Below, piece after piece: positions 22,370-48,132 of a stretch of DNA of 64,000 bases. The DNA comes from Phoronis australis (taxonomy: Eukaryota; Animalia; Phoronida). Numbering within the stretch: the stretch's first letter is position 1; the number at the start of each line of letters is the position of its first letter. The stretch spans positions 70,592-134,591 of the forward strand of contig NMRA01000122.1 of assembly GCA_002633005.1 (NCBI GenBank), written 5' to 3'. The notes beneath the pieces were generated by a model. That model was not told the origin of the DNA. It searched no databases and was given only the letters and a program-made list of their open reading frames with translations. A program made the translations under genes and the position numbers.

Positions 22370-23287
22370 TTATCTAGGGTCGTTGCAGCTAAGACCCACC
22401 TCGGCAAACGCCGAGGTCACTTCTTTCGTGGAATAGCCTTCGTCACGTGCTGCGCTCAAAACACCGCATACTCCACTATTAAAGGTAGTCGTCTTGTCCC
22501 AGTAGATTTCGTTAGCTATTGCGAATACTTTAAATGTGGGAATGATTCCGAGACCTTTTTCTTTCGCGAGAACGCAGAAGACTCGGTTATAAAGACCAGA
22601 TGCAAAGTGGATATTCAATTTGGCATGGTATTGACTATAGTGGGAAATCGATCGACCGTCTACGCGTGGATTGCACATGTCTCGCAATCCAAGATTTGGA
22701 AGCTTAAAAATGCTAGCGCCAATTTTGTAATCGTTCGTATTATCCACATAATGTTCTACAGCTTCACCAACCATGTCGCAGAAGGCTTCGTCGATGGCAC
22801 CTGACTCGCCCCAGTATTCCAGATTAGCATTGCCTTTTTTGGCAGTAAACCCGTGGCCTATTTCGTGACCAACAACGTCGCAAGACGTCAAGGGATAGCT
22901 CAGGTTAGACGCACGGTTACCGTCACCGAAAAAGAAGTATGAGTTGTAGTAGAAAGCGGTATCCCAGTTATATCCAACATGAACTGCAAGGTATATCCAA
23001 CCGTCGGTTGGTAAAGTGTTCAGAGTATCCAAGAAGAACCGTTTCACTTTGGTGGCGCAGAAATGCGCATCGCTAAGAGCAGAATATCCTCCATTGACGG
23101 AGTCATACATGTTTCCCTCGGTGCAGCCGAACGTTTTGGGGTAGGGTGGCCAACTCAGGCCTTTTTGGAAGTCGTAGGTCGACACACCCGATGTGTTCAG
23201 GCTGCAGACCGTTTTCGCTGTGTTCGACGAAACCGACAACGGTGGATACTTACTGTTTGCTTGGGAGGAATACGTGTGCTTCCCCGT
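22370..23287 (-). CDS. M4 paralogue 1, catalytic-domain exon
   Basis: ttttcag|TGKHTY..SDAHF..AFYYNSYFFFGDG..YPLTSCDVVGHEIGHGFT..GESGAIDEAFCDMVGE..DGRSI..AFAEVGLSC; 918 nt ending at TAA. Confidence 0.95.
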   Translation of the reverse strand, partial: TGKHTYSSQANSKYPPLSVSSNTAKTVCSLNTSGVSTYDFQKGLSWPPYPKTFGCTEGNMYDSVNGGYSALSDAHFCATKVKRFFLDTLNTLPTDGWIYLAVHVGYNWDTAFYYNSYFFFGDGNRASNLSYPLTSCDVVGHEIGHGFTAKKGNANLEYWGESGAIDEAFCDMVGEAVEHYVDNTNDYKIGASIFKLPNLGLRDMCNPRVDGRSISHYSQYHAKLNIHFASGLYNRVFCVLAKEKGLGIIPTFKVFAIANEIYWDKTTTFNSGVCGVLSAARDEGYSTKEVTSAFAEVGLSCNDPR

Positions 23288-26200
23288 CTGAAAATTACAT
23301 TTAACTTGGTACAATGCGATAGGAAAGACGAATTTTGCTCCTTGTAATAAAGCTTAATATTTTAACGTTTTTTTTTATAACAGAAGGGACCATATGATAA
23401 CTGCGAATCTGTACTGTACATGTACAATTTACGAATAAGCTGACAATATGTAAATAGCCATGACGTTTGCAGCTAAACAGACGTTTCATGAAAATGGAAG
23501 CATTTCAAAGCAGCGTTCTGTAAGAGTATTTCAGTACTATTTACTGGGAAGTGGTCACCGGCACATCGAACTATTTCAATATTGTACTAAATCTGGTGAT
23601 TTCACCCACATGTGGTTTCGTAACCTGCTTACACCATTGATGCATAGAGGGATTTAAAGGGGTAGTCTGTAGGTGTTTAGAGATTTCGTGAGCTTCTCCA
23701 ATGCGAAAATTGTGGTTAAGACGTCCTAAATCTATCAGTGTCAGCCAAGGCGCCACCCATGGACGATAAAAGAACTAAAATATTTCCTAAATATGTGATT
23801 AAACATATTCTGTGGTTCTTGGTGGCTGTTCTTTGCCGAAGCTGTCGTGTGGCTCACCTAAAGCGTTAGTGAGGACTTCGCAAGGAGCTCTTCTCGCTGG
23901 TTCCCTACGTGCCTAGTTAGCACGCTGCGTGATGGCTACCGACCTCCTGGCGACACGCAGGGAACCAGCGAGCTCTTGCGATTGAATAAAAATCAGACGC
24001 ATATTTCGTTTTGGTGGACAAGTCGTGATAGCGGTTTGTAGAGTTTAGCGGCCTCTTCGGAAATTAGAAATTTACAGTAGTTACAATGTTCGACAGTGGC
24101 TCATTCTTTGAAGCAGCTTGTCGAACTGAAGTTTCGACGGTTGGAGGATATTTCAAGTGTATTCTGAAGCCAGGGTTGAGTTACGTAGACGTAAGAATCT
24201 CGTGAGTCAAGCTAGCTATTCTAGCTGCTATATCTGGAATGCACCAGCGATATCTTAAGAAGTCACGTTTGCGGGATCTTACGTTTTCGCGAGCCAGGTT
24301 CTCGCGTATATGGAACGTTCCCCAGAATTTAGAATGCATGACATCACGTTTTCTCGTGGAAAACAATTGTACAAAGTGGCTGGCAAAAGAGTACGAAGAT
24401 ATACCTACTGCTCGAGTGCTTCTTACCTCCCCGGCCATCGTAACATATCGATATTTTAAATCAAGCCCTCAGGTTTTCAAAATGGCCCGATTTGAATATC
24501 CATTTGCTTGAAACATCGTGTGTTCTGTGTTGATAGGCATGCAGATACATGTCATGTAGTTTGGACATACGAAAAGTTTACTGCCATAATAGGCCTGACT
24601 AATATTTTGCTATCTAAAATAAATTTCACTGGTCCAACACTTACTTTTGTCGTTCCTCCAAAACTGTTGGCCAGATAGGGAAACTGTTTTTTCAAGTTAT
24701 CCCAAGTTTTCCACACGCGCCCTCGTTTCTTGGCGTCTACAATACACAACGGGCTCATCGGTTGACGGGGCGTCAACAGGAGATAAGTAACCACATATAC
24801 TAGGCGAGGAGGCGTGTAACGTCTGTTGTGCAGACTTGAGGCACGCGATGGAGCTTTTTTCCGTAGTTTTGGAAGACCTGGAATTAAAATTTCAAATCTC
24901 AATCACTGTCTTGTGTTTTGGTAATACGACATATTTGTCGAAGGCGAATTGAGAGCGTACTGCTGCTGTGGGGGAGAGGAGTGGAAGCGACTAAGTAGGC
25001 CACATCATTTGCAACAAACACTTCGATGGTGATTCAAAAAATTCCCTAGATTTGTGTAGTTAAAAAGGAATCTGTTGTAGAGTTTCGAACTCCCAAAGGT
25101 ACCGTCGTAGATAAATTTGTCAGAAAAGAGTGCCATTTTGTGGGGTAAATTGCTCTTGAACTAGTCAGTACCCTTTTGAGGTGCATGTGCCATAAAGTCT
25201 TCAATGGAAGAGGTGTGAAACAACACTTAGCGGGTCTATCCATGAACGTTTTCAACTATGTAAAACTGTGATATTTGTCGGTGAATCTGTCGCCTTGGCC
25301 AGTAGGTTCCTGGATTAGAGCAATGAGTAGCATTTGGCTTGCAGGAAAGCGTTACGTTCGTGTTTGTTAAAATTTACCTGGATGAATGAAGAGCTCCGTA
25401 TGTGGTTTCTGTATACCCGTTTTTGGATGGCCATGGGCTTTTCTGCAAACATCAATGGCCTCCAACGGTTGCAGTCGTGGAATTACTGCGCTTCTGTCTG
25501 CAAAAGTCGTGTTTAAATAGTCTGTTATTTCGTACCGCCCTTTCTACCAAATTTGGAGAATATGCAGTCACTCATAAACACGTATGTATGTATGGTCCCC
25601 TTCCTCCTCAACTGTGAAATTGTCACTGAAACAAAATCCAACCAGTTCACAATGTATTTTTACGAATTCTTTGTAAAAATTTTGAATTTCTGTTGACTTC
25701 AAAGCATTTTTCTTTTAGTTTCAAATTTCAAAAAATTGATCTGTCAACAGCTGGTCACTTTGTCGATTTTGTCACACAAGGTGAAGCACGTCTCCTTATT
25801 TGGTTGGGCAAGACAAAGATGTACCACATTTCCTTTATATGACGTTTGACCTTTGATGTTATCAAAACAATGTCGACTTCAAGCAGCAGCCAGTCCGATT
25901 AAGAAGCAACGGAAGTAAGTCTTAATTGTTTGAAGCTAGGAACTAGTTCCTAGTTTGAAGTTAGTGTCAAAGGTGTCGTAGTATTCAAAAATATTCTAAA
26001 ATGCACTAAGAATTCTGTTTGGGATATAGATGCTTCCCTGGCTTGCCTCATACTGTGCTGTCGACCTCAGATTGGGAGTGCAATCACACGTGATCTGCCG
26101 TTAATATCCATCTTGTCAGTCAGCTTTGACCGCATGCGCGAATTTGTCATTAAGTAGCATGGAGATTAGAAACTATGTGGTGACTAAGATTTTTTTTCTT

Positions 26201-29200
26201 AGCGCGTATTTCAAAACTCGTGGGTTTTGTCATTTTTGTGGAAACGCCCTTAAAGGGGAAAGTGAATAACTCTGTAGTAGACGTTGCCAGACAGCACTTT
26301 CGTCATGAACTGTTTAAAGGATATTTTTGTATGTTATAAGTACCTTTTGCGAAAAGAGAATACAAATGGTGTATTTCACATAAATAGGCCTTCGGCCCAC
26401 GTTACAAATATATAATAAACAGTTCAGGATTTCCAAACCAACACATCAACAAACTCATTTCTACTTTCCTGGACATTAATTAATATAGTTAGCAATTTTC
26501 TTCAAGTTATGTAAATCATGGATCTGTAGGAGATCCCTGAATACTGCTTCATCCACCCTCATCGAATCTATGTAAAAACTATTGTGCAAATCAGAATATA
26601 ATTTACATTCTATAAGATAGTGAATTTCTGAGTCCACATTTCCAGTATTGCTGCAGGGACATTCTCTCCTCTCTAACTGCGAAAAGAGAGTCACCTTAGG
26701 AGGCCGTTGATGTCCTTATCTCTACCTACTCGAACAAATACTCCCGAAATCAAACTATTTTCGAACATTCCTTCGTCCAGTTGCCCAAACAAGCCACTGT
26801 CCACTTTTTACATTGCTGGCGCCAGGGGGTATGGTCTCGTTCGAGCTGAGAAGAGTTAAAGATATCAAATACCTGGCAAGGTATCCGTCTATTCACAAAA
26901 AGTACTTATAGCAACACGACTCTGTTGGTGTAGTCATTGTGAGGCATAAGTCGCCGAAAAAAGTCCGGCGTATGGCTGTCCGCTGAGATGGTCACCGTCT
27001 CTACAGTGGCTAGTGGTAGTGTCTAGAGCCCTGTCGTGCTTATTCTTGATCTCTGAGCCGAGATGACCAAAACGGAGCGATGTGTATCGCGCTCCACCCG
27101 GCTACTATTGTGCGACGTACCGTAAAGCTTTAAAAAGGTAACACCTGTATATTTGGTTCCTACAGTATGTTAAGAGCATCAACCTGATCCCAACAGTGCC
27201 ATAAATTGCCAAATGTTGGCTTATTGACTTGCTTTTGCCTACGTCACCGCGAGAATCACCTTTTAATTCAAACAGCTGCGAATAACACCCGCTCGCAATG
27301 CTGTTCTATTCAAATCCCTACTTGCGCACTTTGATGGCGCTGCAAAAATGATTGTTGTTTGTTGTTAACAACCCAAACGTGAAAGCGCGCGTGTTTCAAA
27401 CACGCAGAACCATTGTAGTTTGAATATAACAACTCGTTTTCAAGCCCAATTAAATGTGGAGTAATAATTACATGTAAACCAGTACACGTCACTGATGAAA
27501 ATACCTTTCAGGAACTTTTTTAGCCTACGAGCAAGCCTGCCTGTCGTCCAACCTGTGTAAAATCCACCTGAGATCTCTGTGACAACATGTGACCCGTAGA
27601 CTGGCACACCGTAGTATTGCTGCTGTAACTTAACCTGGCAATGACCGACATATTTAGTACTGAAACTCAAAAAAGCTTTAAGGCAATGTAGATGTGTGAC
27701 AGAATTGACGAAACATTTGCTGGCAAGATGGCTTAAAGAACAAAATATCCAAGTCGCCCGGCCTATCGCTTAGACAAACTGGATTACTTGCGGCTATTCT
27801 CTTTGCCTAAGGCTGCGTCACATGATCGATTTCCTGTAGTTAAGCCCGTTACCCCCCCCCCTCAAAGCCTTCTGAAATGCAGACATTTTTTTGTGTGTGG
27901 TAAACCATAAACAAATGACGTGGAACCGTAATCAGCCGTCGTATAGACAATGTCTTTCGGATGTCTTTTAAAGCTGTTGTTAATTATTTCATTAAATAGT
28001 TTTGGGATTTTAAAAATCGAACAGCCAACTCTGTTAATTTTACTTGCTGAAAAGCATCGTGAAAGTTATTTTATCGACATTTTATAATTAAAGCGTAAGG
28101 CAGCAATTTTAGTGTCATTTTTGGTTAAATTGCGATGTTCTGATTATCTTTATTAAATATTTAAATCAAATAAATTTTCCCTAGATGTAACTTATTATGC
28201 ATGCAAATTTTACGACCTGAATTGTTCCCCACCAGTTTGGAATTTATACGGATTTTGGACAGTGTTTGACAGCGGATGCGTCTTTGTTTAACTCAGCACA
28301 GCAAATCAAAGCAAGACAATTATTATTCTTGGTGGCGACCTTAAACTCCCAAGCTGGTTCTGGAAACGAGTTACCTCAAACTGAATGCACCATACCTAAA
28401 TATCCATGCCCTATCCAATGTACTCGACCAGATCATACAGTAGTCGACAAGGAATGGAAACACCACAGAGCTTATCTTAACAAACCAACCAAACCAGATT
28501 AACCGTAACCAACCCCTTCTTGGTATGAGCGACGACGACGGAAGATGCAAACCCAAAGACCAACTCCGTTTTATAATAAGGCCGATTGGGATATATTATG
28601 TAACCACGGGGGTAACCAAACTTAGAAGATTACACTAGAACCTGGCTTATCCCCCGAACATCTGTGGCGGGAGTTTAAGGGTGCCTTGGCATCCCTCACA
28701 ATATGTCCAAACGATTTGAAAGTAAACCTTGGATCATTCTTGCCGTTCAACATAAAATGAAGCAAAGAGCTCGATAAGTATGGTCATGAAGAAGACGAAT
28801 TGTTATTCCGTAGGCTGCGGAGTTAGTTTCAATCTTATTGAAACTATACTGAAAACGCCATTACCCCCAAAGGATGATAACCAGTTTGGTTCAAAGAAAA
28901 CTTTTATCAAGCATTAAAGTATTAACAGCACTAGGACAAAAGAAGAAGAAAAGCGGAAGGAGAAGGAGAAGGAGAAGAAGAAGAGACGAAGAAGAAGAAG
29001 AAGACAGAGAAGAAGAAGGTAGAGGAGGAGGAAGAGAAGGAAGAGGAAAAGTTATTTGTTTTCCTCGAATTCTTATTCAGTTGATGCGTACCGGTATGTA
29101 AGCATCATGAACTCTAGCCTAGTATAGAAGTTCCGTTTCACAGACTGCCAGTGGATGGCAAAATCCGTCGGAGTTGACTAGTTCGTGTGAAGAACGCTAG

Positions 29201-30112
29201 TTCACGTCACGACCGGTAAAAATGTCGCGCATAATGCAAACGTCATTTACATGTATTGTCTGATTACGAAGGGAGCGTGTGCGTGGAGTCATGAGCGTTA
29301 AAGATATTATGATGAAGGATGTCATGCCGTCCGCATTTCCCTTTTGTCCTCCGACGCCATGTGGTATTAGCAAGCTGCAGCCTCTGTAGTGTCTCAAGAT
29401 CACGAACTTGATGTCACCTGTGCCTGTCTTTGAACAGCCATCGCAGCGTTCAAGGCAGCACAGCTTCACCATGAACATGATTTACGTATTTGGCTGACTC
29501 TAGTCATTTCCCGTCCACTGAATATCAAGGGGTGGTTAAATCCCACTAAATTGAGTTCTTGTTCAATCTAGGAGTGTCTGAGAATACACGACCAAGGCAA
29601 ATAACTAGGGTACTGTTTTGGAAAACGTATAATAATCTAACAATGCCCACATTGAATTGTGGCACAAACAAAGCTGGTGGGGATTGATTCGGTGAACGCC
29701 ACTTCCGGAATGACGACTGCATAATTAAGTATAATTAACCAAGGGAATTTGATAAATTGACAATTTATTCAGGACAATCAAAAAATTGCAAACAATGGTA
29801 TGTAATTTATATCAGTTTCACACGAGATGACCACTGAACAATTCGCTTGCTCCTTACGTTTCAAAGGTGACGCAGTTCACTTCTCCAGTTGAGGAAAGCT
29901 AGTATTTTTGTAGACCTACCAATGTTCTCCTACCTTGACTCTGCCTCGCCGAGTTTTGAAAGATTTCATGGAGCGCAAAGTTTCGTCTTTTCCAATGTCA
30001 AGTGTAAACATCAGTTTGGCCCGAGACATTTTCGTGCGCATGCCAAATCCACTGCGGTGTATATTGACCATTTCACTGGACCCGGGATATATCACGGAAA
30101 GCGGAAGAAGCG
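22370..30112 (-). CDS. M4-family (thermolysin/LasB/vibriolysin-like) zinc metalloprotease, paralogue 1; complement join(29934-30112,27505-27634,25378-25497,24645-24877,22370-23287); first coding exon not located
   Basis: The exons splice in frame into a signal-peptide tail, FTP (LQQQYYGVPVYGSHVV), PepSY (PRLVYVV..CIVDA..WDNL) and catalytic domain with HEIGH, GAIDEAFCD, LRDM, IHFASGLYN. Confidence 0.9.
23893..23972. mobile_element. 80-bp hairpin micro-MITE, copy 2 (opposite orientation to copy 1)
   Basis: Same TIR CTCGCTGGTTCCCT..AGGGAACCAGCGAG; flanking CTCTT on both sides. Confidence 0.7.
24645..24877 (-). CDS. M4 paralogue 1, PepSY exon
   Basis: attccag|GT CTT..RLVYVVTYLL..PLCIVDAKKRGRVWKTWDNL..GGTTK|GTAAGT; phase 1 to 0. 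Confidence 0.88.
25378..25497 (-). CDS. M4 paralogue 1, propeptide exon (absent from the ORF track)
   Basis: ttttgcag|AC..RSAVIPRLQPLEAIDVCRKAHGHPKTGIQKPHTELFIHP G|GTAAAT; homologous to 45887-46000. Confidence 0.85.
26355..26700 (-). mobile_element. 3' fragment of a non-LTR retrotransposon (LINE, clade uncertain)
   Basis: ERRECPC..VDSEIHYLIECKLYSDL resembles the C-terminal Cys/His motif of LINE ORF2, followed by a short 3' UTR-like stretch (GGCCGAAGGCC). Confidence 0.65.
27505..27634 (-). CDS. M4 paralogue 1, FTP-domain exon (130 nt)
   Basis: tgccag|VKLQQQYYGVPVYGSHVVTEISGGFYTGWTTGRLARRLKKFLK G|GTATTT. Confidence 0.88.
28334..28685. mobile_element. Possible small MITE
   Basis: Inverted ends GGCGACCTTAAACTCCC and GGGAGTTTAAGGGTGCC. 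Confidence 0.4.
28938..29049. repeat. Purine-rich (GAA/GGA)n microsatellite
   Basis: AAGAAGAAG..GGAGAAGGAGAA..GAGGAGGAAGAG run. Confidence 0.9.
29934..30112 (-). CDS. M4 paralogue 1, signal/pro-region exon
   Basis: Strong acceptor ttttgtttctttcag|CG, then LLPLSVIYPGSSEMVNIH..LMFTLDIGKDETLRSMKSFKTRRGRVK|GTAGGA; C-terminal part aligns with paralogue 2 (FELGMEKDEELFERTRFKTKRGKKK). Confidence 0.8.
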
Positions 30113-33100
30113 CTGAAAGAAACAAAACGGTGTGCACTCCCCTGGGGTCTTCAGAAAAAATGGTGCTAGTGCGCCTCCAAGAGGTAAATAACAAAAACGC
30201 ATTTCAATGCGTTTGAATCGACAAAAGTAAAGACATCAAAGCTCTTGAAATGTGCAACCATATTAATAACTGACTCGAGAAAGTGACCCACTCCAATAGC
30301 TCACGCAAAAAGTGTCGAACTTTAACACTTTATATATAAATGACCCATAAAGAATCCCCACTGACAGAACATTCATAAACCATATGTATTTGTCACCAAT
30401 CGCAGTACTAGGGTTGACAAAATGTCTACCCAAATGAATTGGTGGAGTCTATACCCATATCGATATCAAAATAGGCGAAAACTCTAGTAGAGTGTCACAT
30501 GTGTATGCAACAGTGCCGCAAGAAAGAATCATGGGGAATCACTGAATAATGAGAAAAGTGATTTTGGGTTGTCAAGTAGATGCCCGTATGATGGCAATGG
30601 TAGCAATGGTATTGGTCTTTTTGTTGATGATCGTAATGGTGGTAGCAATTGTTAAGTGATGGTAACGGAAGTGATGGTGGTTCAAACCTGTTACGTGTGA
30701 CCTCCCCTTTATAGCGTTAATAACTGAATTTTACAGGGCATTATTTCTACATTTTCCGATTGCTATTTTAATGTCTCTATACACAAACAGAAGAGAGCCG
30801 ACAAGCATGGCAGTCTACGTTTATTTGAAGGGGAGTAACGTAATTATTAATACCTAAACGCCAGTTGAAAATCTCATGTGTATTTCATACCACAAAACTA
30901 TGACGAAATTATGACCACTCCAGCTTTAATTATACGGTTAAATAGATATTAACTTAGCGACATAATTTACATAGGGTACATGCCACATTATTGGTTTTTG
31001 AAGACAACTGACAGGCACGATGGGTCATTAACGGTACTTAACAGCAGGTTGCGCTTTTCGATATTTCCAGAAAAAAAGATTAATTGCAATTGACCTTAAC
31101 TATGCATTTTAATTTTCCATTTTAATTTTCCATGAGTCACATACGAACTCATCATGAGTACGGAGTTAACTCGCCTTCTATCACAGAAACTAACTCTTGA
31201 TGTAGACAAAGAAGCCTTATGAAATATGTCTTAGAACATTTCCTCGATGAAGTTAGCAGCAGTAATTTTAGGGCTTCGAACGAACTGGCAGTTGTATTCT
31301 GCTTGATTTCAAACTGGCTTATCAACGCGGATGATTTCACGTGTGGCCGCGTCTTGTCTGAAGGAATTTGCAAGACGACAAATTATTTTTGTCAGAGTAA
31401 AATACATGGACCAAAATCTAAAGTTTAATCATTGATTGTACTCAGTTACATTGTACATCAAACCGTATTATAGTGGGCATTTTCACAGTTCGTTGCACAT
31501 TCATTTGAAACAAAACATGAGTATATGTTTGACTGTTTGTGAATCACAGTACTAAAAATTACGCTCCTAGATTTCACTGATCGTGTGTCAAAATGTGAAT
31601 ATCGTTTGAATTTTGGTTCAGTTATTTTTTTTATTGTGTTTATGTATCAATATGTATTTAAAGACAATGGGCGATACCACTGAAATTGGCAATTTCTGGT
31701 GATTAAATGTATCAGAAAACATTCAATCCCAAAACTTGTACAGTTGACGAGTTTCTATACAGTCAAATAGTTTCCTGATTTCCCGTATTCTTATAATTAA
31801 CCACACTTTCAGCGAATATGTTTTTTATTTTATTAGCAGACCCGTCAATATGGTTTTACTCCTTTAACTAACCCAAAAGCTCGAAACACGTAGCCTGATG
31901 AGCCCCAATTTATTACATCAATCCGTTGGCCAATTTATTGCAAATGTCAGTGCTGTTACGTTTGTAATATAACGGACCGTTTTTATAAAGCGGGAATCAT
32001 CGGTGGCCTCACAATGATTAAAAATATTATGCCTTTGTCTAAAGTCAAAACTTAAATATCAATTACTTTTCATTGCTCTTCATTGTGAAATAAAACAGGT
32101 CTATGACGATCCTTGTGCGTAACAGGTGTTTGCTTCAGGGGGAAACCAGCCTCGCTTTGACTTGCAAAATGACGAAATCGTGCGTAAAGCAACGTTAAGC
32201 TTACTGGTAACTCCAAACAATATAGAATACAAGAGAATATGAGCTTTGATTAAGATAAGCATGTGATTTTACACCATGTTGTATTGCATATTTCATTCCT
32301 GTGACTTTTGCGTTTTTGTGAATTCAAACAGTAAACTATTAATTTACAAATATCTTGACACAACCTACCGACACACAAGACGAGCCCTGGAACCATGCTG
32401 ACAAAGTGAGTCTCATAGAGTGCAATGACACAGCATCTGCAAACAAAATGAAACTGAGATCAACATCTTGTGCAAAACTTAGGTCGTCAAAGAGGTAAGT
32501 ATGAGTTTTGCGGAAGGTCAGTCAACATACCAGTTCACTGTTCAATTACGTTCGTCTCTACGTTTACTTGTAGGTTACTAGAAAATAAGATATGTACAGT
32601 ACATTGTATTTATTACATTTCACTACTGTGATTTAGAAATATCTGCCCTCGCTATAACTGTAAAGCTTTGTTCGGATCAAAACGCCGGTAAGCTCAACGA
32701 TCTAACTTCAGGAAAGAGATCATCCAGAGTATTTTAAACCTCAAAAACTCATCATGGAGCAAACACCAGTGATTGTTATGGCGGACTCAAAGTTTACCAG
32801 GTAAAAAAATCGGGTTTCGTCAAAAATTGCAATCGTACTAGAAAGTGGCTCTCAACAAAAACATTTTCCAAAAACGTAGTATCCCTGAAGACATGCAACA
32901 TGACATAATCGATTTGACAGCCTAAAATTTTTTTTTCATTATTATTGTTTGATTTTATAGGTTAATTAGCTTTGACCACATCAACAAAACGCCAAAATCC
33001 ATTGTGTTTTGTGATTTTATTACAATTTGTCAATTCTCACAGTTGTCTACCGCTGAAAGCTATCACCGGTGATTATCCAGTTGCAAATAATCGAATCTGG

Positions 33101-34027
33101 GTTAGCCAGCTTTGGACTGCGACTGTTTCAGTGGTGGGGTTAGTCTCAGAATACCACTTTTCTTGCCGGAAAAAGTTCCAAATTTGGATAATTTAGGAAC
33201 ATCATATCTCAGAAATCGTTGATTGGATTCATACGTAACGTTCAGATATCATGCTTTATGGCTAAATACACAAACTTGTCAATAAGGTCCTGCGTAATTT
33301 TAAGTATACGTCGCTATAGCTATATATTACTTGACCCTAGAGGTTTAACCAGGCTCAGAGCATCGCTTCTGAAATATTCTGTCACTATCACCAATTTTCA
33401 TCACAATGCCTAAATAAAAAAAGAAAATTTATCATTAGGAAATTGTCGGAACATAGACATTTGCAAATGTTTATTTCTCGAAAACGTACCTTACAATGTC
33501 AACACTTTACAAACTTCACATGCCCTCCTTAAATACTTAACAAGATACTAAATTTATTATTTATTTATTAGTAGCAGTTTCATTTATAAAATTCAATTTC
33601 TTCACTTCTGAATATACCTTAGTTTTGGGAAAGTGAAATTCTACGTAGGATTCGTCTGTCGACAAACACATACAAATCTCTTCGCGCTTATCCTCGCACC
33701 CTTTAGCCCACTCAACATAATAGCATCTAATGTACTGTACCTGTTCCTAATGACACCTTCCTCTGTCTTGATTTCAGTTTTGTCCAATTGTTTTATAGTG
33801 ATAGCGCAATTGTAGAAAATTTAAATTGTAACATAAATCAAACTTTTAATGGGTGGACGATTGTTTTTACCGTTGGACCTCGATTGCTCCCCCTCTCAGG
33901 GCTACAACGTCTTGTGAAGTTGATCGATTATTGTGAACGCATCAACAGAATTACACAAACACAATTGGTGTACAGTGATTATATCAGCCAACTCAGAAAT
34001 CAAGCATTTCGGCACCGTCTACATTAA

Positions 34028-35449
34028 GGGAGGAAGCAACCTTTTTCATGTCATTTTTAGTAACAATACGGTCAGTTCCTTGATTATCCCAGACATATTT
34101 GTCAGCTAATGACGGCTTCCCGTAATTTAATTAATTAGTATTCTCCTATTCCGGAAGTGACGTTTAGGGTATAGAATTTCCCGCCATTTTGTTTTCACAT
34201 TGTCTGACAATGTGAGCTGTCGAGTTAGTCATTGTTTTACCTCAGTTGTGATAAGTTCAGTCGTCGTTTGCATTTGTTTAAGAGTCAGTGAACATGTTGC
34301 GCGGTTGCTTCCTTCCGGGACGTACTCGTTATCGTCTCACGTGCCATTACATTGCGCTCCGACGGATGACATGCTCCGCCTTCCTTGGCTCGTTCGTGTG
34401 AAGAACGCAGTGTTACCCGACCAAGGAACGTACAAAGTAGTGGAGAATCAGCGAGTGTGCGGCAAGCATTTTCTGCCATCGGATAACGAAAGATACCTGA
34501 AAGTGATGAACGTTCCTGAAAAACAACGCCTGGAGAAGGGTACCGTTCTGTCGATGTTAATGCCCGGCAGTGTCTCCTCGCCGCTCCCGAAAAGTGCATT
34601 TTTGAAGCGAGAAGCCTCGCGAGCTTGGGTTCCTACAGGGATTCGAGGCTCTTCAAGTATTGTCATCCTATCCAGCCAGCAATAGTTGTATGAAGTCCAT
34701 CGTCAAAAAACAGCTGTTTGTAGCCAGCCAGCTATATTCAATATACAAATTTGCACCAACGCTACTGTCACAAGTGCCTCCGAAGGTATCCCTAGAGCGT
34801 GCAATTCCGGGAACTAACATTGGTTTGCCCTGTGCTGACATTGTTTCCAGCCCAGCAGCCCTTCAGCGATGTTGAATAATGGGGGTGAATACATGTACAA
34901 GCCCAGTTCGTCATCAGCCAGTGAGGAGGACAGTTCGTGGTCCAGTGAACACTAGTGCCGGTGAACCAAACTTTGATAAGCTTATTGTGGACTTGACTAG
35001 AGCTATTTAGAATGTGCCAGGTGTACGGCGAGGGAGTCACACGGTGGGATGTAAGCTGTTTGGGTGTTCAGGTTTCCAGCCGGTCAATGTGAGTGTGTCG
35101 AAAGTGGGACACTCGGGCAAGTGAGACAGTTGTTCGTCCGTCTGTTGGATGCCCGTCGGAGGTCCACTTTACCATGCTTTTCACTGGAAACACCTTTCGG
35201 TGAAGACACTGACGGACTTCGGTTAAGTCAAGTTGTTTTCCAAGACGACAGTAGAACAGATCCTCACAGAAAACTCAAACACCGAAGCAAAATAGCTGGA
35301 AATTCTAAACCCCTAAACTTCAGTTCCGGAATAGAACAATATTAATTAATTTAATTACGGGAAGCGGTAATTAACTGCAAAAATATGTCTGGGATAATCA
35401 ACGAACCGTATTTTTCACTAAAATGACTTAAAAAACGTTGCTTTCTTCT
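34028..35449 (+). mobile_element. Internally deleted Kolobok-type DNA transposon with THAP remnant
   Basis: TTAA on both flanks; ~165-bp imperfect TIRs; ORF remnant ..RVCGKHFLPSDNER..QRLEKGTVLSM (THAP C-terminal motifs). Confidence 0.82.
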
Positions 35450-36161: not shown

Positions 36162-36450
36162 GCTAACAGCTTATTATTTAAAATGACTTATTCTTATTAA
36201 AGTGACATAGACAAAAAATTGAATTTCGGGGGTCAAAAGCGAGGCCATCTATATTAATATTGATGTCCCCGCCGAAAGGCAGCCGGAGAGCGGGGCCCTC
36301 TAATTTAATACAGAACGCGTCGCTCCCCGGCTACCTTTCGGTGGGGCCAACCATATTAATATAGGTGGCCTCGCCTTTGACCCCACAAATTCAATTTGTT
36401 CCTATGTTATTTTAATAAGAATAAGTCATTTTAAATAATAAACTGTTGGC
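36162..36450. mobile_element. ~290-bp fold-back (palindromic) MITE-like repeat
   Basis: Arms pair over ~130 bp (TTATTATTTAAAATGACTTATTCTTATTAAA..GCGAGGCCATCTATATTAATAT..CCGAAAGG) around a short loop near 36300. Confidence 0.85.
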
Positions 36451-38059
36451 TTGTAATATGTTGTTCGGAGATTGGATGAGTAGTTCCCCAGTGCATCACA
36501 CATACGGAATATTTCTGAAAACGGAATATCACTCTTCCCGGTACTAGGAACGCTTTGTTTTTACTATGCCATGCACTACATGCACATACCGTTATAGGAT
36601 AGTGAGCCATTATAGGTCGAGGCGCTTGAGCGCTAAAAACGGTAGTCGCCCTTTACCGTTCATACGAAGAACACACACATACGGGAGCGTTTGTACCGCA
36701 TGGGCGGTTCCAATGCAGTACTGGGATACAAATCGTTCGCACAGATTTGAACAAACATAGTAACTTCACCGTCAGATGTATCTCATAAAGCTACTCTTGG
36801 AAAGCGTACTTTCGTTCTGAATTTCCGTGTTAAGAAATTTCATGAGAGGGGGTTCTTATTTGTCTTCTTGAGTTTGTCCGACTTCTGTCCAAGTTGTGAA
36901 ACGCGACGTCATTTTACCACATTGTGGTAATGTAAAAAAATTTACTTCTACTTTCAACATGTAAACAAATAACATCTCTAGAGTCCCAAATGTAATGACA
37001 CTCTAGTTTGAATAAGCATTTTAACTGGGAGCAGAAATTTTCTTGAAAAAGTCGTTTGAAAACGATATTTGAATTCTGTGTATGGTTTTGCCCATTTCTC
37101 CACACTAAGAACATGCAAGGAACTTTGCTTGATTTGTAACCGTATCCAGTGTATGTGGGTATTTAGGCACACGCGCCAATATCCGAACTAATGCATTTTT
37201 CAAAGAAATTTGTTTTCGCATGAGTTTCGCATATCGGCGCATGCTCCAAGTTTCGATTCTATGCGCAAGTGGGTGTCTTTTGTTGAGGCTCACACCTTGC
37301 TGTAGATACACGTAAATGCACACAGATTGTCCTTGACAAAAGCGAACTTCCGTGAACGTGCAAAACATTTTATGTGAGTTGATTTGATTGCTGCAATCCT
37401 AATTATAATTCAAATAATACCAAATTCTTTTTATGATATGTGAATTTCTTTGTAACTAAGTAGGAATGCCAGCTAACAGCTCAGACCAGTGACTTATTGT
37501 ATGGCAAAAGTGGTTTTAAAGTTTTTATCTTAGTTCGTAAATTGTGAAACATTGCATACATTAATTAAACTGGATCTGAGTATTGTAAACGTTTGAAAGG
37601 AATTAAAAAAGATGTTTGCGTGACTTGAACCATTTAATGAAACGTCACCAGTGAAAATGCCCCAAGAGTTTTCATCGGAAAACAACGCAAGTGTTTGATA
37701 TGTGCAGACTGAATACGTGCACATGCAGGGCGTCTGGGTGTTTTATGCGGTTCTCATATAGGGGCATGCGCCCAATTCCGGAATAAGCGCATGACGGGGC
37801 CTAAATGTTCGCATATACTGCAATGGGGAGAAAAAACAGTGATGAGTGGCGACGCATATCAGCTTGTAAGCAGCCCTTCATCGATGTTGAGTAATGGGAG
37901 TGAATACAATTCCAGTTCGTCATCAGCCAGTGACATGCTAACTTGATTTATTTTTGGTAAATGATACTCGGTTTTGTCTTGTGTGTAGAAAAATTACTGT
38001 GTTGTGCTGACGGCCGGCCTGAAACTAGGGATCATTCAATGTGTGCCTGACAACTATGT

Positions 38060-40364: not shown

Positions 40365-41312
40365 TCAACTTGACGGAGTTGCAGTAGTGGCGTTTGTGTT
40401 CGGCGGACTTGTCGGTGGAGGTGGCGGAGGAGGACATACTGCGCCTACAACTTTGAAAGCTGCAGTCACGTCAGCCTTGCTAAAACCTTCGTCTTCGGCG
40501 GCAGACTCTACCCCGCAAACGCCGTCATTGAAGTTAGTGGTTGTATCCCAGTATCTTTGGTTGGCCCGTGCGAACACGATAAATCCCTTTTTTATATCCC
40601 ATCCCGGTTTATGGACAAGAACGCAAAAAGCTTTATTGTATATACCACTGCTAAAATGGCCATTCATTCCCGCCTGCCAGTTACTCACGTGATCTATGGA
40701 TATTTTGTCTGCTGTTGGAAGACACAAATCTCGAAGTGCATATCCTTTTTGCCGGAATATCTCGTAGCCAATTTGGAAGTCGTTTCGGCCGTAAATATGA
40801 TGTTCGATAACTTCACCTACGATGTCTGAATATGATTCGCTTATTCCGTGTGCTTGTCCCTTGTTTTCTAAATTCGAATGTAATTCAGTAAATCCATGCG
40901 CAGTCTCGTGCGCTAAGACGTCAGCAGAGACCAGAGGGTAAAATGTGTTGTTACCGTCTCCGAAGAACAAATAGCCGTTATAGTAAAATGCGTTCTCATA
41001 TTCTTTACCAAAGTGACAGAACAAGTGAAGAGAATGTTTGAGAGGAGGTTCGTTGAGATACTTCATGAATGCCTCGTGAGTTTTGCCGCCCAAAAAGTGC
41101 GCATCACTGAGAGGAGACGCCGCGCCGTTTTTAGCATCCTCGAAGCCGTCGCTGCATTTGAATTCTTTGGGATCATATGGTAATGTCCAATTTCCCTGCA
41201 TGTCGTACGTCTTAACATTTGCATTTTGCAAGCTACACTCAGTTCCATTCAAATCTGTAACAGCCGATAGTGGCGGGAATATCTCGTGTTTTCCATACTT
41301 CCACATTCCAAT
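40365..41312 (-). CDS. M4 paralogue 2, catalytic-domain exon plus Pro/Thr tail
   Basis: ttttccag|IGMWKYG..NGAASPLSDAHFLGG..YENAFY..FGDGNNTFYPLVSADVLAHETAHGFTE..ADVTAAFKVVGAVCPPPPPPPTS..; 948 nt. Confidence 0.95.
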   Translation of the reverse strand: MGMWKYGKHEIFPPLSAVTDLNGTECSLQNANVKTYDMQGNWTLPYDPKEFKCSDGFEDAKNGAASPLSDAHFLGGKTHEAFMKYLNEPPLKHSLHLFCHFGKEYENAFYYNGYLFFGDGNNTFYPLVSADVLAHETAHGFTELHSNLENKGQAHGISESYSDIVGEVIEHHIYGRNDFQIGYEIFRQKGYALRDLCLPTADKISIDHVSNWQAGMNGHFSSGIYNKAFCVLVHKPGWDIKKGFIVFARANQRYWDTTTNFNDGVCGVESAAEDEGFSKADVTAAFKVVGAVCPPPPPPPTSPPNTNATTATPSS

Positions 41313-44300
41313 CTGGAAAACAAATGTTTTTATTGCATGATTTGTACAGACTTTGTAGAGTGTTGCGAGATGGAGTATGTCAATGGAACAGAATTTTGGA
41401 AATCCCTAGTGTGCATTGCGCAATGCTATCATAAAAACAAATCGTTTAGTCGTGTACTTGAGTTTGAAGCAGTACTTATATAGTACTTACAGTTTGTCTT
41501 TGAAATTTGTCAATAATTGTTATAATGATTACGTTATATGGCGAATGATTTAGAACGAAGTCCTGTCCACATACAGACTTGCCCTAGAATAACTTGCACA
41601 TGTGCAACTTGCCCCACTTTAAGCGGAGTGTCCACACACATGTACCCGATACCTTGCGCAATAAGGCGTAAGATATTACTTTGCGCATGACAATGAACAG
41701 CTCATTCGAAAAAAGACCCGAGTGTGTGTATTTGCGTTAGAAGTGCAAGTTACCCTAAAACAAGTTACAGTATCTCGATATGGTGGAGTAAGGTGTCTCG
41801 TGTGTTCAAATTGCACTAGATTTAACAGCGTCCAGAAAACCCCCACACCTATCGACAACTCACGTTCCAGGAGTAACTTGTTTTAGGTTAAATTTATGAT
41901 TTGAGGGTACTCTTTAGACCACACAATGACATAAGGAGCGAAGTAGAAACTCATTCCCAGTGGTCGTCATGTTCCTAAACCTCCACACGTCTTTACACCA
42001 GCTTCCTGTTCCAAAACAAACTCTTCGAATAAACCCTAGGCAATCGATGACACATTTTGTCTCCCATATTTAAAAAGGTCAACCCATTTTGGTTGATTCC
42101 AAATTCATTTAGTGCCTATGATAAATGACGAGAAAGCTGGTGATAAATAGTGAACCAGCTGATGATAAATTGTGAGCCAGCTGATGATAAATGATAAGCC
42201 AGCTGGTGATAAATGATGATCAGGCTGATGATAAATGGTGACCCAGCTGATGATAAATGGTGAGCCAGGTGATGATAAATAGTGAGCCAGCTGATGATAA
42301 ATGGTGAGCCAGCTGATGATAAATGGTGAGCCAGCTGATGATAAATGGTGAGCCAGCTGATGATAAATGATAAGCCAGCTGGTGATAAATGATGAGCAGG
42401 CTGATGATAAATGGTGAGCCAGCTGATGATAAATGGTGAGCCAGGTGATGATAAATGGTGAGCCAGCTGATGATAAATGGTGAGCCAGCTGGTGTTAAAT
42501 AATCATCATCCATAGCTGCACCATTCTTAGATCATTGTTCAAAGATAGGACCTTCATAAACCATCACGAAAATTATATCAAACGTTAATATGAATTCTTA
42601 TGGCCCATTTGTAATATATCATACAGCTCATAGAAATTCAAAGAATTGGGTGATACCAATTCATATAAAATCTTTTATAATAAATTATGATCAACTACAA
42701 TTGTCTGTCTGCATAAAAACGTCCATAGATGGCTTACACAGCATACTTATGATCGTGTTTATTGCTGTACAGTATTTTACATATTCATATGCATGTATTA
42801 TACATGTAGATATACATGGAGTATACATGCGCATATACAGTGAGTATACATGAATTTTCCATATACATGTATACATGTAGTACATGTACATAATGATATA
42901 GCTTGCATGTGCATGTATCTTTGAATATATTCATCAAATCATTTATTTGTCTTACTGAACGTTTTTAGTTTTGTCTATTAAATCGAATATTCTTTGTGGA
43001 TTTGCCACCCACTCGCCTTTCAAATTGAGAACACCAGATAACAGGTACACCCAGAGTGCGCGTGAGGGCGATAATGAGTACATCCCGGTCCGCAGCAACT
43101 GTGTGGCATTTTGACTGACTCGTAAACAAAGCAAACTACGACCGAACTTATCACAACCGAGGAAGAACAATGACTGAATCGATATGCTCACACAGTTAGG
43201 CTATATGAAAACAAATCTGGCCTGAACTTCTTGACTCCCTCAACGTCACTTCCGGAGTAGGGCACGAGTAATTAATTAAATTACAAAAAGCTGTAATTAA
43301 CTGAAAAATATGTCTGGGATAATCAACGAACCTCATTTTTACTAAAAATGACATAAAAAGATTGCCTCCACCTTTAACGTTTGATGCACAGTGAGCAGCG
43401 GTGGAGAATTTTGTGCACACTGACCATAAAATCATATTACCTTCTCATTTCCTCCAACACTGTTTACGTGGCGCTGATATATGAACCTTCCGATGTTTGA
43501 TAGACCTTCCCAGGAGTCGATAATTTTGCCATTTTTGGCGTCGACAATGCAAACAGGTCGTGTCACAGTTTTGGGCGACGAAATGAAATAGTTTACCTTG
43601 TAAACTAGACGATTTTTATAATGTCCATGCGTTTTGTAACCTGAAAATCGAGATTTTAGAAATTGTATTGCATTAGAGGTTAACAAGCAGGGCTAACAAG
43701 ATAATGGCCCCAATAGACACCATGCTTGTGAACTCACCTCAACAAATATTGGCTATTCTCTGGACGTCAAGACGTCCGTCCACCCTTGTCGTCTGCAACT
43801 TTGTCCCATGTTAGCTGTAGTCGTCAATGAGCACCATCCCTCCTCTAGTTGATCTGGGAGTTCCAATTCTTTCCATCGTCAAATGGTTTCGTCCAGTTTA
43901 TGGTAGTAAACAAATGTTAGCCCCAATATCTCACTAAATATCGGTTACTGGTCCCCTTTTCTGATCGTCAAACGTCGATTCCCCTTTTGGATCGTCAAGA
44001 AATTTTATCACCACTCTGAACGCCAGTAAACCCTGTTGCTCTGGTCGTCAACAAGTGTTGTCCTTGATCTGGCAATCTACAAGCCTCTTCCCTCGTTTGA
44101 TCGTCTTCATCTCCGCTCTCCTCTGTTTGTCAACAATTATCGTCCCTGCTCTATTCGTTGAAAGCCCCGTTCTTCATCTGGTCACCAACAGAATCTTATC
44201 CATAACTGGTCAGTTTTACTAGAGCTCACAAACCATGTCACAAAATTCGGTGCTCTCAAAAGTTTTGACAGCTTAAGATAGTTGTCGTGGTTCACCTTGT

Positions 44301-44845
44301 CACTATGATATAACATGAGCTAGTGGCATTAGTTGATCGCTTAACTCTAAGTGAATATTGTGCTGAACTGAATTTGTGCAACACAAAATTGTGAAACCAT
44401 CGATGCAGAAATAAAAACCTCTTATCAGCTCCATATTGTGAGTTTCATTCCTTAAAACGGATAGGAAATCGCTGTCCGTCCATTTCAAAATTGGGTCTCA
44501 AATTGATGCTTTGGGTTATCAGAACTGAGAGTTCGTTATTACCTATAAAGCCAGGCTTTCCAGGTTGACTTGTCACGGTGTGTCTTTTTTATTCGCCAAG
44601 CATGGTCTAGAGCATCAACCTACTGGCAGTTCTTTACAGTACGGAACAAGGTTAGTTTCTTCAACGGAGCGCTGAAGCTATTGCTGCTTTGAATGCACAA
44701 AGTCTGCCAAAGTCAGTGTAAACCGCTGATTTTTGTCCTTGTGCGTGCGTGTGTGAGTGTGCATGTGTGTGTGTGCGTGTGTGTGAGTGTGCGTGTGTGA
44801 GTGTGTGTGTGTACGTGCGCGTGTGTCTGTGTGTGCGTGTGTGTN

Positions 44846-44888
<43 letters not shown>

Positions 44889-47800
44889 ATGTGTTTGTAT
44901 ACATAACAGCGCAAAAGCTGACAACCGACTGTTCGAAGTTGTGTTCATCAGAGGGAAGATCAGTGACGGTACCGTTCTATAACTAATGTTTCATTTTTTT
45001 CCATTTTCGTCTACGACACACGTGCGTATTTGAAAATATGAAAGTCCGCTTTAGTTGTCAACAAATTAAGTCCGTCGTCTGGTGATAATTGAGCCACGTC
45101 CCTCTTTTGATCGTCAATATTGCAACTTGCGTTCCTCCTCAGGTTGTCCACAAGTTACATGTACGTTCCTCCAGGCTTAAATGGCAAGACACGAGCCAGT
45201 TCCACGTATTTAGCTGACTGCACAGATGCTCTGTTCAAATACACACAGATATGGGCTGGGTTCCAAGGAGCAGTTTTTGCAAGTAAAGAGCTATCACAAA
45301 GATCTTCGTTACGTGACTTTCTTCATTATATGAGAAGACCGTGGTCACAACAGGATAGAGTTTCGTAGGGGCAAGAACCTCGTTAAGGAAGCTAGTGTGA
45401 TCACGTGCTTCGCTTGCAATGCATGGCGGAGACCTCGCGAAGACTTGGCAGTTATTGCTTTCTCACAAGAAACTAGATCTACCGAACGCACGCATGTTTT
45501 CACTCCAGAATGTTTTGTGTTGCTGAACGGGCAGAGGATAGTGATTTCAGTGCCATAGGGTATTTTACACGGGGATGAACATTCGTTCTAGGCGTTCATC
45601 GTTGCACCTCTTATATTTAAACATAATAAAAACAGGCTACCCACACAAACAGCTCACTCTGTATTTATGATCATAGCTCCTCACTTATGAACACAACTCA
45701 CAAAAACGTGTCTGCACGAACAAAACACTTACTATGCGCCCAAAAAGCATGCCCCACACACAGGCTCTCGTCCAATCACAAAACATGTGAAGTCAGCAGT
45801 GTTCATAAAGTGTAAGTGAGGGGTTACATGTACGAGTACACTATACTAATCAAAATTGGTGGCTGTATAAATTAAATAGACCATACCTGGGTGAATAAAC
45901 AGCTCGATTGAAAAATCATCGACTCGCATTCGTCTGTGACCATTTTTTCGTTTACATTTACGAAGCGCCTTCATCTTGGGTACTTTTGGTCTTACATCAC
46001 CTGTAGGAATCCAACCGGTTCAATATCGAACATAATTTTATTCAACAAGAGAATCCAGCAGAAGTTTTGAAATCAGACTTTCAGATGAGTTTGAACTATT
46101 TTCAGCTTTTCATGTTCTAAAAGTTATTTTAACACTGACACTAACTAAGTTTCAGTGGCGAATTTAAGAGGGGGCAAAGGTTGTCATGGATCAGGGGGGA
46201 GGCAAATGTCTGAGAGGCAAAACCCTGGCTAATATTCTGCCCTACCCCCCCGCTCAAAATCCGGGATCCTCCTTTGTCAACAGACGTTTTCAGTTAACAT
46301 AACCCTGGTGTGTTGCGTACAGATGGTTACGCTCGATTCCGGGACTCACCTGACTTACGCAGGTTTAGACAGGTCAACCAGTTAGAGCATCTGATTGGTT
46401 TGTGAGTAGGAGTAGTCCTCCTCGGGAACCAATCAGGACCCGGTGCGTCTTGCTGAGGCAAGACACTTGCGAAAAAGGAAAGAGAAGAAGAACGAGTATG
46501 CGCGGGATTTTACTAGCCTACCCAAGCAAAATGGCGATCAATTAAGTATCATTGATGTCTGATTGATGAGTTTGGAATGTCGAAATACGGAATAAAATTC
46601 ACTGTTTTTGTGCAATACGTGAAAGTTTTTCGCCACAGTGTCTTGCGACTATGGAACGCAGCCTACTCTGGATGGTTAACCCGTTTGACCCAACATACGC
46701 CAAGTCCAACCAAAAATGCATTTGTATTCACTCATTTTCAACAAAGATCTGAAATGAACATAGCCCTTCACACACTTTATGAACGTAAAGTGTTGCATGA
46801 AACAGTCACAAATAAGGACTCAAATAAGTTGTCTAATTTTTTTACCTATTTGTGTCTTTGTTCACTCACAGATTTAATCTCTTTACTATCATTTCATCTT
46901 TATTGTGAGCTCCTTTTTAACTAATTACATTTTTAATGATATAACTAAAAACTAATCCCTGATTCAATGAAAATAGATAGGGACTTAGTCGTTGCATGAA
47001 AAGATCCCGCTAAATTTTCGATTGCATTGAGAATTAAACATACGTCGAGGTTACTCTCGATTTGTATCAAAGCCAACAGTTGACTTGGTAACGAAACTAA
47101 AACAGCATAAGAAAGGACAATCGGTGTTTTCATAAGTCCACAAATACACGGTAGATTTAGGGAACATATTTTAGCAACTATCTGGGACTGTTTCATGCAA
47201 CCAAGCATCCCCACCTTTCAAGTCCTTAGTTAAACGTCTGGCGGCGAAGCCCGCAGCGTCACCAGTGAAAGCACCCGCCTCTGTTTCGGCAACGATTGAC
47301 GATCCATAAATGGGAACATTTTTATACTTCAGTTCTAGTCGAGCCTGAAGCAACATACATATGGTTTATACCAACACTTGTGTACTTTTAACTCCTGTAT
47401 CTCCCGTTGACAAGAGCGCAAGGTGATGTAGGTGATGTAATTAGTCTTTGACAATAGTTAACTCCCGTATGTGGAGCCTGCAAAACTTGTAATAGATCAC
47501 GTGAAATGTAAAACAATTGGACATTGAGCATAATTGTAATTGGACTAATTTATTGGCGTGAGCACATTTTTGCCACTGTAGTAAACCAGCTCATTTTTTA
47601 ACCCTGCTTTCCGCTCACCAGCCAACAATGCAATTTCAAAAATGTTTTGTAAATTACGAATAATACAAACCCACAGATATGCTTTCTGACAATGCTATAA
47701 ATCAATTAGTTTGTTTGGATCAGATTCTAGTCACCTTTTTCTTTCCTCTTTTTGTCTTGAAACGAGTACGTTCAAACAACTCTTCGTCTTTTTCCATACC

Positions 47801-48132
47801 AAGTTCAAATTTAAATCGATTCCTCGTTAGGCGAACCCTCTTCCGATTTTTTTTAATTCGTTCTTGACTTGTCTCTTCGACTTTTCCCTTTCTCGCTTTG
47901 CCTTCATACAAAACTTCCATAAACTTTTTATTTGCTTTCTGTGTTTTTTTTCTTGACTTCTGCCATCTCTCTATAGATCCCTGTATGGTATCATGCAATC
48001 TTTCTTTAGATTCAAATTTGAATTTTTGCAGCCTGCCTATTTCATCCTGCTTGCCCGCGCGTACTCCATTCAGTCTCACTTTTGCTTTCGTTTTCCCCGT
48101 TATTGCAGCCACCGTGCATAAACATGACACCA
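40365..48132 (-). CDS. M4-family (LasB/vibriolysin-like) zinc metalloprotease, paralogue 2; complement join(47735-48132,47215-47344,45887-46000,43441-43640,40365-41312); first coding exon not located
   Basis: In-frame GT-AG exons give a signal tail, K/R-rich pro-segment, FTP (YKNVPIYGSSIV), PepSY (RLVYKVNYFI..RPVCIVDAKNGKIIDSWEGL) and catalytic domain with HETAH, GISESYSD, ALRD, HFSSGIYNKAF. Confidence 0.9.
42117..42502. repeat. 22-bp minisatellite (~17 units)
   Basis: Unit ATGGTGAGCCAGCTGATGATAA; a variant block recurs at 176 bp (42191 and 42367). Confidence 0.95.
43048..43373 (-). mobile_element. Left-end fragment of the Kolobok/THAP family
   Basis: Reverse complement matches the left TIR and THAP 5' region of 34028-34340; TTAA at 43374-43377. 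Confidence 0.8.
43441..43640 (-). CDS. M4 paralogue 2, PepSY exon
   Basis: ttttcag|GT TAC..RLVYKVNYFISSPKTVTRPVCIVDAKNGKIIDSWEGL..GGNEK|GTAATA. Confidence 0.9.
43743..44213. repeat. Highly diverged ~28-bp tandem array (resumes at ~45035-45155)
   Basis: Recurring core (GTCCC)..CTCTGRTCGTCAA at 25-33-bp spacing, ~17 units. Confidence 0.7.
44740..44899. repeat. (GT)n microsatellite
   Basis: Imperfect then perfect GT run, containing one N. Confidence 0.97.
45887..46000 (-). CDS. M4 paralogue 2, propeptide exon (absent from the ORF track)
   Basis: cctacag|GT DVRPKVPKMKALRKCKRKNGHRRMRVDDFSIELFIHP G|GTATGG; same ELFIHPG ending and phases as paralogue 1. Confidence 0.87.
47215..47344 (-). CDS. M4 paralogue 2, FTP-domain exon (130 nt)
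   Basis: gcttcag|ARLELKYKNVPIYGSSIVAETEAGAFTGDAAGFAARRLTKDLK G|GTGGGG; same length as in paralogue 1. Confidence 0.88.
47735..48132 (-). CDS. M4 paralogue 2, signal/pro-region exon (K/R-rich)
   Basis: ctcgtttcag|TG VSCLCTVAAITG..RFKFELGMEKDEELFERTRFKTKRGKKK|GTGACT; 398 nt open. Confidence 0.82.

Follow-up and report, generated by a model that had tools for sequence, protein, structure and literature searches.

Whether an animal genome encodes its own LasB-like proteases is the question raised by a 64,000-nucleotide stretch of DNA from the phoronid Phoronis australis (assembly GCA_002633005.1, contig NMRA01000122.1, positions 70,592 to 134,591 of the forward strand), hereafter called the window. 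Proteases of peptidase family M4 are regarded as enzymes of microbes and as targets for drugs. A preliminary description made from the letters of the window had placed two intron-containing M4 genes in tandem on its minus strand, between positions 22370 and 48132. We named them gene A and gene B. Results showed that both are real, expressed M4 genes of the host. The reading that we favour, with modest confidence, is that the locus holds two spliced, co-expressed M4 host genes of the LasB/vibriolysin type. They would likely go back to an ancient gene transfer from a bacterium into animals, one that other spiralians have in common with them. The zymogens that they encode are predicted to be secreted and to break down protein outside the cell, most probably that of food.

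Two spliced and expressed M4 genes in host DNA

The window resembles animal DNA, with microsatellites, transposon remains and a G+C content of 34-46% per 2 kb. The catalytic motifs lie in two long minus-strand frames, at 23353-22370 (gene A) and 41405-40365 (gene B), and the upstream exons were located by GT..AG sites and by similarity between the two paralogues. After GT..AG splicing, both frames are free of internal stops, gene A encoding 535 amino acids and gene B 605, over six coding exons each; in-frame assembly from at least five exons had been proposed beforehand. Four RNA runs carrying the same species label (X1 to X4) were aligned to positions 12000-28900 and 44950-53780, using about one-fifth of each raw-read run. 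Splicing was seen in the reads for seven of the ten introns, while gene A intron 1 and gene B introns 4 and 5 lie outside the aligned stretches.

In gene A, coding exon 1 (32369..32396) is predicted from a GT donor, the frame and a hydrophobic N-terminus, and contains the ATG and the start of the predicted signal peptide. Exon 2 (29934..30112) encodes the remainder of the signal peptide and a basic pro-region, and 93 X1 reads lead from exon 3 to its end (loose end 27636). Exon 3 (27505..27634) carries the FTP propeptide motif and is joined at 25497/27505 (82 X1 reads) to exon 4 (25378..25497), which encodes further pro-region. The next joint, 24875/25376 (45 X1 reads), leads to the PepSY-like exon 5 (24645..24877), near whose end the predicted maturation site falls and which aligns with exon 5 of gene B. 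The last joint, 23287/24645 (71 X1 and 7 X2 reads), opens exon 6 (22370..23287), encoding nearly the whole M4 catalytic domain and the stop codon, with HEIGH at 22867 and EAFCD at 22789.

The ATG of gene B lies at 49989, in a first exon at 49962..50014 (coding 49989-49962) that encodes the predicted signal peptide. The frame and the joint 48132/49962 (11 X1 reads) connect it to exon 2 (47735..48132). The preliminary description had ended the gene at 48132; its start exon lies beyond that point. A GTG or upstream ATG start within exon 2 was considered and dropped, since the RNA joint leads to exon 1. Exon 2 encodes the end of the signal peptide and a long Lys/Arg-rich insertion in the pro-region, and is followed by the joint 47343/47734 (5 X1 reads). 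Exon 3 (47215..47344), the FTP-equivalent region, aligns with exon 3 of gene A and is joined at 45997/47212 (8 X1 reads, 1 X2) to the pro-region exon 4 (45887..46000). The PepSY-like exon 5 (43441..43640) is predicted from the frame. Exon 6 (40365..41312) contains nearly the whole catalytic domain, a Pro/Thr-rich tail and the stop codon, with HETAH at 40910 and ESYSD at 40838. A possible additional non-coding 5' exon near 52631 is indicated by three reads, which fall within a repeat and are hence weak.

Reads from the protease genes lay on the strand opposite to those of CAPSL, a neighbouring animal gene, as expected. Depth over the last exon of gene A was 95.7 in X1, 2.46 in X2 and 0 in X3, and over exon 2 of gene B 16-18, 0-0.5 and 0, whereas CAPSL (bin 12564-13127) was evenly covered (8.1, 8.3 and 8.6). 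Transcripts of both proteases are thus far more abundant in X1 than in the other two samples. The X4 contigs contained CAPSL pieces and no M4 exon joint, to which we give no weight. Downstream of gene A (21024-22295), 11 X1 molecules stop at 22295, just beyond the stop codon. Minus-strand RNA persists at a depth of 5-13 to about 21000, as a longer 3' untranslated region or read-through toward CAPSL.

Because the best protein matches are bacterial, a contaminant or a chimeric scaffold had to be weighed. The preliminary description had held that introns speak against contamination, and the GT..AG splicing confirmed in RNA bears this out. The introns share host repeats, the G+C content is host-like, and CAPSL is spliced in the same runs. 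Moreover, at position 22715 in the last exon of gene A, a synonymous allele was present in 86 of 86 RNA reads (the only difference listed for that exon). Contamination is thus excluded in practice, and we regard an artefact as having a negligible probability. The intronic stretches also collected numerous divergent RNA reads, a behaviour typical of interspersed repeats.

The intron phases are 1, 0, 1, 1 and 0 in both genes. Three of the five positions fall in the identical alignment column, one differs by two columns and the first follows codon 9 in both. The paralogues share 43.5% amino-acid identity over 506 codons, with a nonsynonymous divergence (dN) of 0.58; synonymous divergence (dS) is saturated (proportion of synonymous differences, pS, 0.78), so that dN/dS is not computable for this pair. 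Judged from these sequence comparisons, the duplication is old and the protein conserved. The matching phases of the five introns, with an A+B clade at 99, support a tandem duplication that came after intron gain. The pre-pro part would thus have gained five introns before an ancient tandem duplication. A tblastn search with both models revealed no third M4 copy in the 64-kb window.

The encoded proteins belong to the LasB/vibriolysin subgroup of family M4

Pfam recognised Peptidase_M4 and M4_C in both proteins (73 and 105 bits in A, 73 and 79 in B; curated cut-offs 22.4 and 24.4). The zinc motif HExxH and a third Glu ligand about 20 residues later were found where they had been claimed, as HEIGH and EAFCD in A and as HETAH and ESYSD in B. 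Other motifs announced for the pair divide between the two genes: DGRSI is present in A and replaced by DKISI in B, and SPLxDAHF is present in B and reads SALSDAHF in A. With exons scanned singly, FTP reached 21.1 on exon 3 of gene A (cut-off 21) and PepSY 18.6 on exon 5 of gene B (E 0.0024), below its cut-off of 24. The paralogues align through both regions, and both N-termini are hydrophobic by hydropathy.

The best PDB matches of the gene B catalytic exon were Pseudomonas elastase (E 4.5e-74) and vibriolysin MCP-02 (1e-66), followed by a Legionella ProA-type zinc metalloproteinase (1.2e-51) and thermolysin (1.1e-17). The catalytic domain of gene A, the one that was folded, gave a thermolysin-like two-domain fold with a predicted local distance difference test score (pLDDT) of 94.8 from a 65-row alignment; this model was used instead of a single-sequence fold, which reached only 36. 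It overlaid on vibriolysin (3NQX) with a template-modelling (TM) score of 0.89 and a root-mean-square deviation of 1.2, and on thermolysin with a TM score of 0.80. Two assignments were rejected: fungalysin M36 (Peptidase_M36 19.3 bits against a cut-off of 23.3; TM 0.57-0.66), and vibriolysin proper, as the gene A product ends after the catalytic domain and that of gene B adds only a Pro/Thr tail, with no PPC domain. By motif, domain, fold and tree, both proteins belong to peptidase family M4, LasB/vibriolysin subgroup, the type that had been proposed for them.

Residues are numbered as in LasB, the numbers being carried over through the alignment of PDB matches. His140, Glu141, His144, Glu164, Arg198, His223 and the acidic residues at 136, 168, 172, 175 and 183 are kept in both proteins. 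Both LasB-position Cys pairs (four Cys), which form disulfides in LasB, are present too. An extra Cys pair occurs in A, B and the scallop and bryozoan-type rows (10 of 18 animal-like rows), is absent from Haliotis and Lingula, and also occurs in 105 of 270 other rows, many of the Rhodanobacter type. Trp115 is Tyr in both proteins, a position that is non-Trp in 11 of 18 animal-like rows and in 2 of 270 others. The active-site contacts of LasB are given as His140, His144, His223, Glu141, Asn112, Ala113 and Arg198 in PMC9404851. Asn112 is Thr in A and kept in B.

From the conserved residues, the gene A product is very probably an active protease. For gene B, one substitution counts against activity: Tyr155, found in 267 of 270 non-animal rows and which we take to help stabilise the transition state, is Asn. 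Together with its lower X1 depth, this could mean that the gene B product has lost some or all of its catalytic activity and acts by binding, with gene A as the working protease. We consider that unlikely, given an open frame that keeps all zinc ligands, Glu141, Arg198, Asn112 and His223, and the recurrence of the Tyr155-to-Asn change in one Watersipora paralogue and one bacterial-looking row. The gene B product is probably an active protease as well.

Relatives and origin of the two genes

The matches were mostly Gram-negative enzymes, with 38-49% identity across most of the domain. Atlas searches returned mainly bacterial M4 clusters, those near the abalone M4 being 98-100% bacterial, and the LasB type is spread across many bacterial phyla. 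A bacterial origin of genes A and B is highly probable. Animal rows branch basally, or nearly so, in the LasB-type group and not deep within one bacterial family, and fungi have M4 genes (A. niger, PMC7804941). Both points would suit vertical inheritance, in which the LasB-type gene dates back to an early eukaryote or opisthokont, disappeared from most lineages and was never transferred into animals. This is very unlikely in view of the bacterial clusters and phyla just mentioned, and no named non-animal eukaryote occurred among the M4 matches, many of which lack a taxon, or among 28 proteins checked by cluster (5 named animal, 2 named bacterial species, the rest without taxon).

M4 genes had been suspected to be already reported in some invertebrates, and they are: named relatives exist in four species of three phyla. 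RefSeq labels them "hemagglutinin/proteinase-like" and "neutral protease-like" in Haliotis asinina (XP_067678922/3) and "elastase-like" in Ylistrum balloti (XP_060074769) and Watersipora subatra (XP_067951641); the fourth is Lingula anatina (XP_013384835). With M4s of the same type annotated in abalone, scallop, Lingula and a bryozoan, genes A and B are not unique, and the novelty of the pair is weakened accordingly. A full-text literature search, judged by titles and abstract openings, brought up no study on the origin or function of animal M4 genes, and term look-ups in the main texts of PMC8382897, PMC4826915, PMC8643629 and PMC4729200, whose supplements may list such genes, found nothing on family M4. 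Among the animal-like proteins, P0167 and P0205 retain bacterial PPC domains and P0279 has a long Pro/Arg/Tyr/Thr repeat tail.

All trees were quick trees. In a catalytic-domain tree of 70 rows, which omits loci L013 and L052 for want of a usable frame, animal and Gram-negative LasB-type rows were separated from five thermolysin-type rows with a support of 100. In a 36-row tree of pro-region plus catalytic domain, A and B were sisters (99) and eight animal-like rows grouped together (94, unstarred). An approximately unbiased (AU) test compared the free quick tree with one in which 14 animal or animal-like rows were constrained to group together; the constrained tree was ahead by 4.71 log-likelihood units (p-AU 0.589). 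The constrained tree is not rejected, so that one old transfer is allowed, not demonstrated; we judge a single transfer shared with other animals to be rather probable.

Several observations weigh against this. The inner backbone of the 70-row tree has no resolution, and its named animal rows are scattered on long basal branches. In the 36-row tree the animal label needs three changes (starred branches force one), and the closest row outside the window by path is a Rhodanobacter enzyme. The AU test itself is weakened because 7 of its 14 rows are taxon-less and were classed by look and position after a 288-row FastTree had been seen. The Watersipora-type fragments P0372, P0377, P0378 and P0379 look like single exons and suggest introns inside the catalytic domain of bryozoan M4s; P0372, P0377 and P0379 break within that domain and span the position of window intron 5, as far as gene calls go.

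Alternatively, Phoronis may have acquired a LasB-type gene from a Gram-negative bacterium in an event of its own, distinct from whatever gave rise to the abalone, brachiopod and bryozoan genes, in which case animals domesticated M4 several times. The A/B pair indeed sits in a basal polytomy of the free trees, the top identities to the gene B catalytic exon (49% over most of its length) are to bacterial or taxon-less rows, the extra Cys pair splits the animal rows, and the bryozoan-cluster fragments imply different intron positions, again from gene calls. However, long branches and intron turnover could produce the same picture. The AU test does not reject animal monophyly, the tree constrained to it having the better score, and starred branches force just one change. 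An independent transfer therefore appears to us plausible, if unlikely. For the old, intronised and duplicated transfer that had been put forward, splicing, expression and duplication after intron gain held up; the trees, whose backbone lacks resolution, do not show nesting among proteobacterial elastases.

Pro-regions, maturation and proposed role

The pro-regions of gene B (net charge +42) and gene A (+32) are the two most basic among 248 rows with a full pro-region. The other 246 have a median of +2, a standard deviation of 6.3 and a maximum of +16, and 13 animal-like pro-regions range from +3 to -23. The catalytic domains have isoelectric points of 6.1 and 5.6 (A and B). In a Vibrio M4, according to PMC7426729, the pro-peptide is removed and the mature chain starts eight residues ahead of the GG motif. 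By analogy, maturation is predicted near residue 218-222 in A and 278-282 in B. Exons 1-5 would then form the pre-pro part, and the mature enzyme would lie on exon 6 except for about 10 residues.

From what is known of the family, the N-terminal hydrophobic stretch would direct the precursor into the endoplasmic reticulum, where the FTP/PepSY pro-region may chaperone folding and block the active site. Cleavage a few residues ahead of GG(N/T)xKxG would release a zinc endopeptidase of about 310-325 residues, expected to act outside the cell as a neutral enzyme cutting before hydrophobic residues. The very basic pro-regions may pair with the acidic catalytic domains or with an acidic secretory matrix, and cells of one tissue may co-express both genes.

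Digestion is our first choice of role because bacterial M4s serve nutrition, as extracellular enzymes that release nutrients and lose their pro-peptide by cleavage (PMC7426729), and because expression is strongly sample-restricted. The digestive role rests on analogy, and we give it an even chance. Alternatively, the enzymes might be released into body fluid, matrix or mucus, where they would act in defence or remodel the shell, the tube or the extracellular matrix, and the freed cationic pro-peptide may itself bind bacteria or acidic polymers. The charge of the pro-regions, far above that of the 246 others, and the Pro/Thr-rich tail of gene B would suit such a role, as would expression confined to one sample. 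A Vibrio M4 breaks down the proteoglycan and glycoprotein components of collagen fibres (PMC7426729). The basic charge may, however, merely serve inhibition of the acidic catalytic domain, and we rate a non-digestive role a serious possibility, somewhat short of even. A bolder idea, in our opinion improbable, is that this lineage independently domesticated a virulence-type elastase and remade its pro-peptide as a polycation that took on a further function: it might kill or bind bacteria, for example, or help to pack the enzyme into acidic secretions. If true, animals would have acquired LasB-type proteases more than once, and the genes would represent an undescribed invertebrate protease family.

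A LasB-type M4 in an invertebrate is not new, given the automatic RefSeq annotations, and the animal family is apparently undescribed. Distinctive in A and B are the strongly cationic pro-regions, a mature enzyme encoded almost entirely by a single exon and the Tyr155-to-Asn change in B. The first and last of these are concrete biochemical leads. The production of LasB-like proteases by marine invertebrates themselves is relevant to how digestion and defence work in these animals. It also affects the reading of "vibriolysin" matches in shellfish transcriptomes, which may be host genes rather than Vibrio.

Genomic surroundings

The CAPSL (calcyphosin-like) gene adjoins the proteases on the plus strand (10533..16352), as had been noted, and served as host context and expression control. 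It was identified by tblastn with animal CAPSL, and four GT..AG joints were seen in X1, X2 and X3. Molluscs (bivalve, gastropod) rank first for its 162-residue model (73%, unstarred grouping) and echinoderms for a 59-residue exon (66%); by this weak indication the host is probably a spiralian. Its last coding exon is present in two copies, 15818-15919 and 16244-16351 (plus strand). The joint 15920/16243 (14, 18 and 30 reads) adds the second copy just after the stop codon of the first; the frame of the second copy is intact, and this copy may serve as an alternative last exon, with no direct joint to it among the rows listed.

Animal-type transposons had been announced in the protease introns. 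A 320-bp piece of a THAP-domain element was indeed found in gene B intron 5 (43058..43380), with inverted repeats and 79% identity to 34021-34344, while ten intronic open reading frames (among 18 scanned) contained no transposon domain. The related DNA element, with terminal inverted repeats, lies between the protease genes at 34021-35454 (THAP domain 34161-34682), and another decayed relative at 52333-55026. Gene B intron 5 also contains a 22-bp tandem repeat of 17.4 copies (42118-42500). Elsewhere, we found a degenerate BEL/Pao long terminal repeat retrotransposon at 58-3570 (minus strand; Peptidase_A17 E 4.8e-16, DUF1759 weak) enclosing a gap of about 480 N, and an interspersed repeat of about 770-960 bp in three copies (4817-5593, 9269-10171 and 57551-58515; 81-88% identical, both orientations). 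A 300-bp imperfect palindrome at 36154-36458 resembles a miniature inverted-repeat transposable element. No Rfam match was obtained.

Comparison with known systems

The closest characterised counterparts are Pseudomonas aeruginosa LasB (pseudolysin) and vibriolysin MCP-02, which share with A and B HExxH with a downstream Glu, R198, H223, both Cys pairs and the fold (TM 0.83-0.90, gene A model), and apparently also the order signal-FTP-PepSY-catalytic domain. Unlike these enzymes, A and B have five introns, very basic pro-regions and the extra Cys pair, together with Tyr at Trp115 in both, Thr at Asn112 in A and Asn at Tyr155 in B. Vibriolysin precursors carry a C-terminal PPC domain, which A and B lack.

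The animal M4s of RefSeq are likewise LasB-type pre-pro-proteases of spiralians, often present as near-identical paralogues. They are not close orthologues of A and B, with which they form no starred grouping, and their pro-regions range from neutral to acidic (net charge +3 to -18). Several bear C-terminal extensions, and the bryozoan-type genes appear to have other intron positions. Thermolysin, bacillolysin and aureolysin, the Gram-positive M4s, share family, fold and zinc site with A and B but are far more distant (E 1e-13 to 6e-23, TM 0.68-0.80, branch support 100). Horizontal transfers into invertebrates have also been reported for msp130, alpha-amylases, aerolysin-like biomphalysins and centipede venom families, all of which are different protein families.

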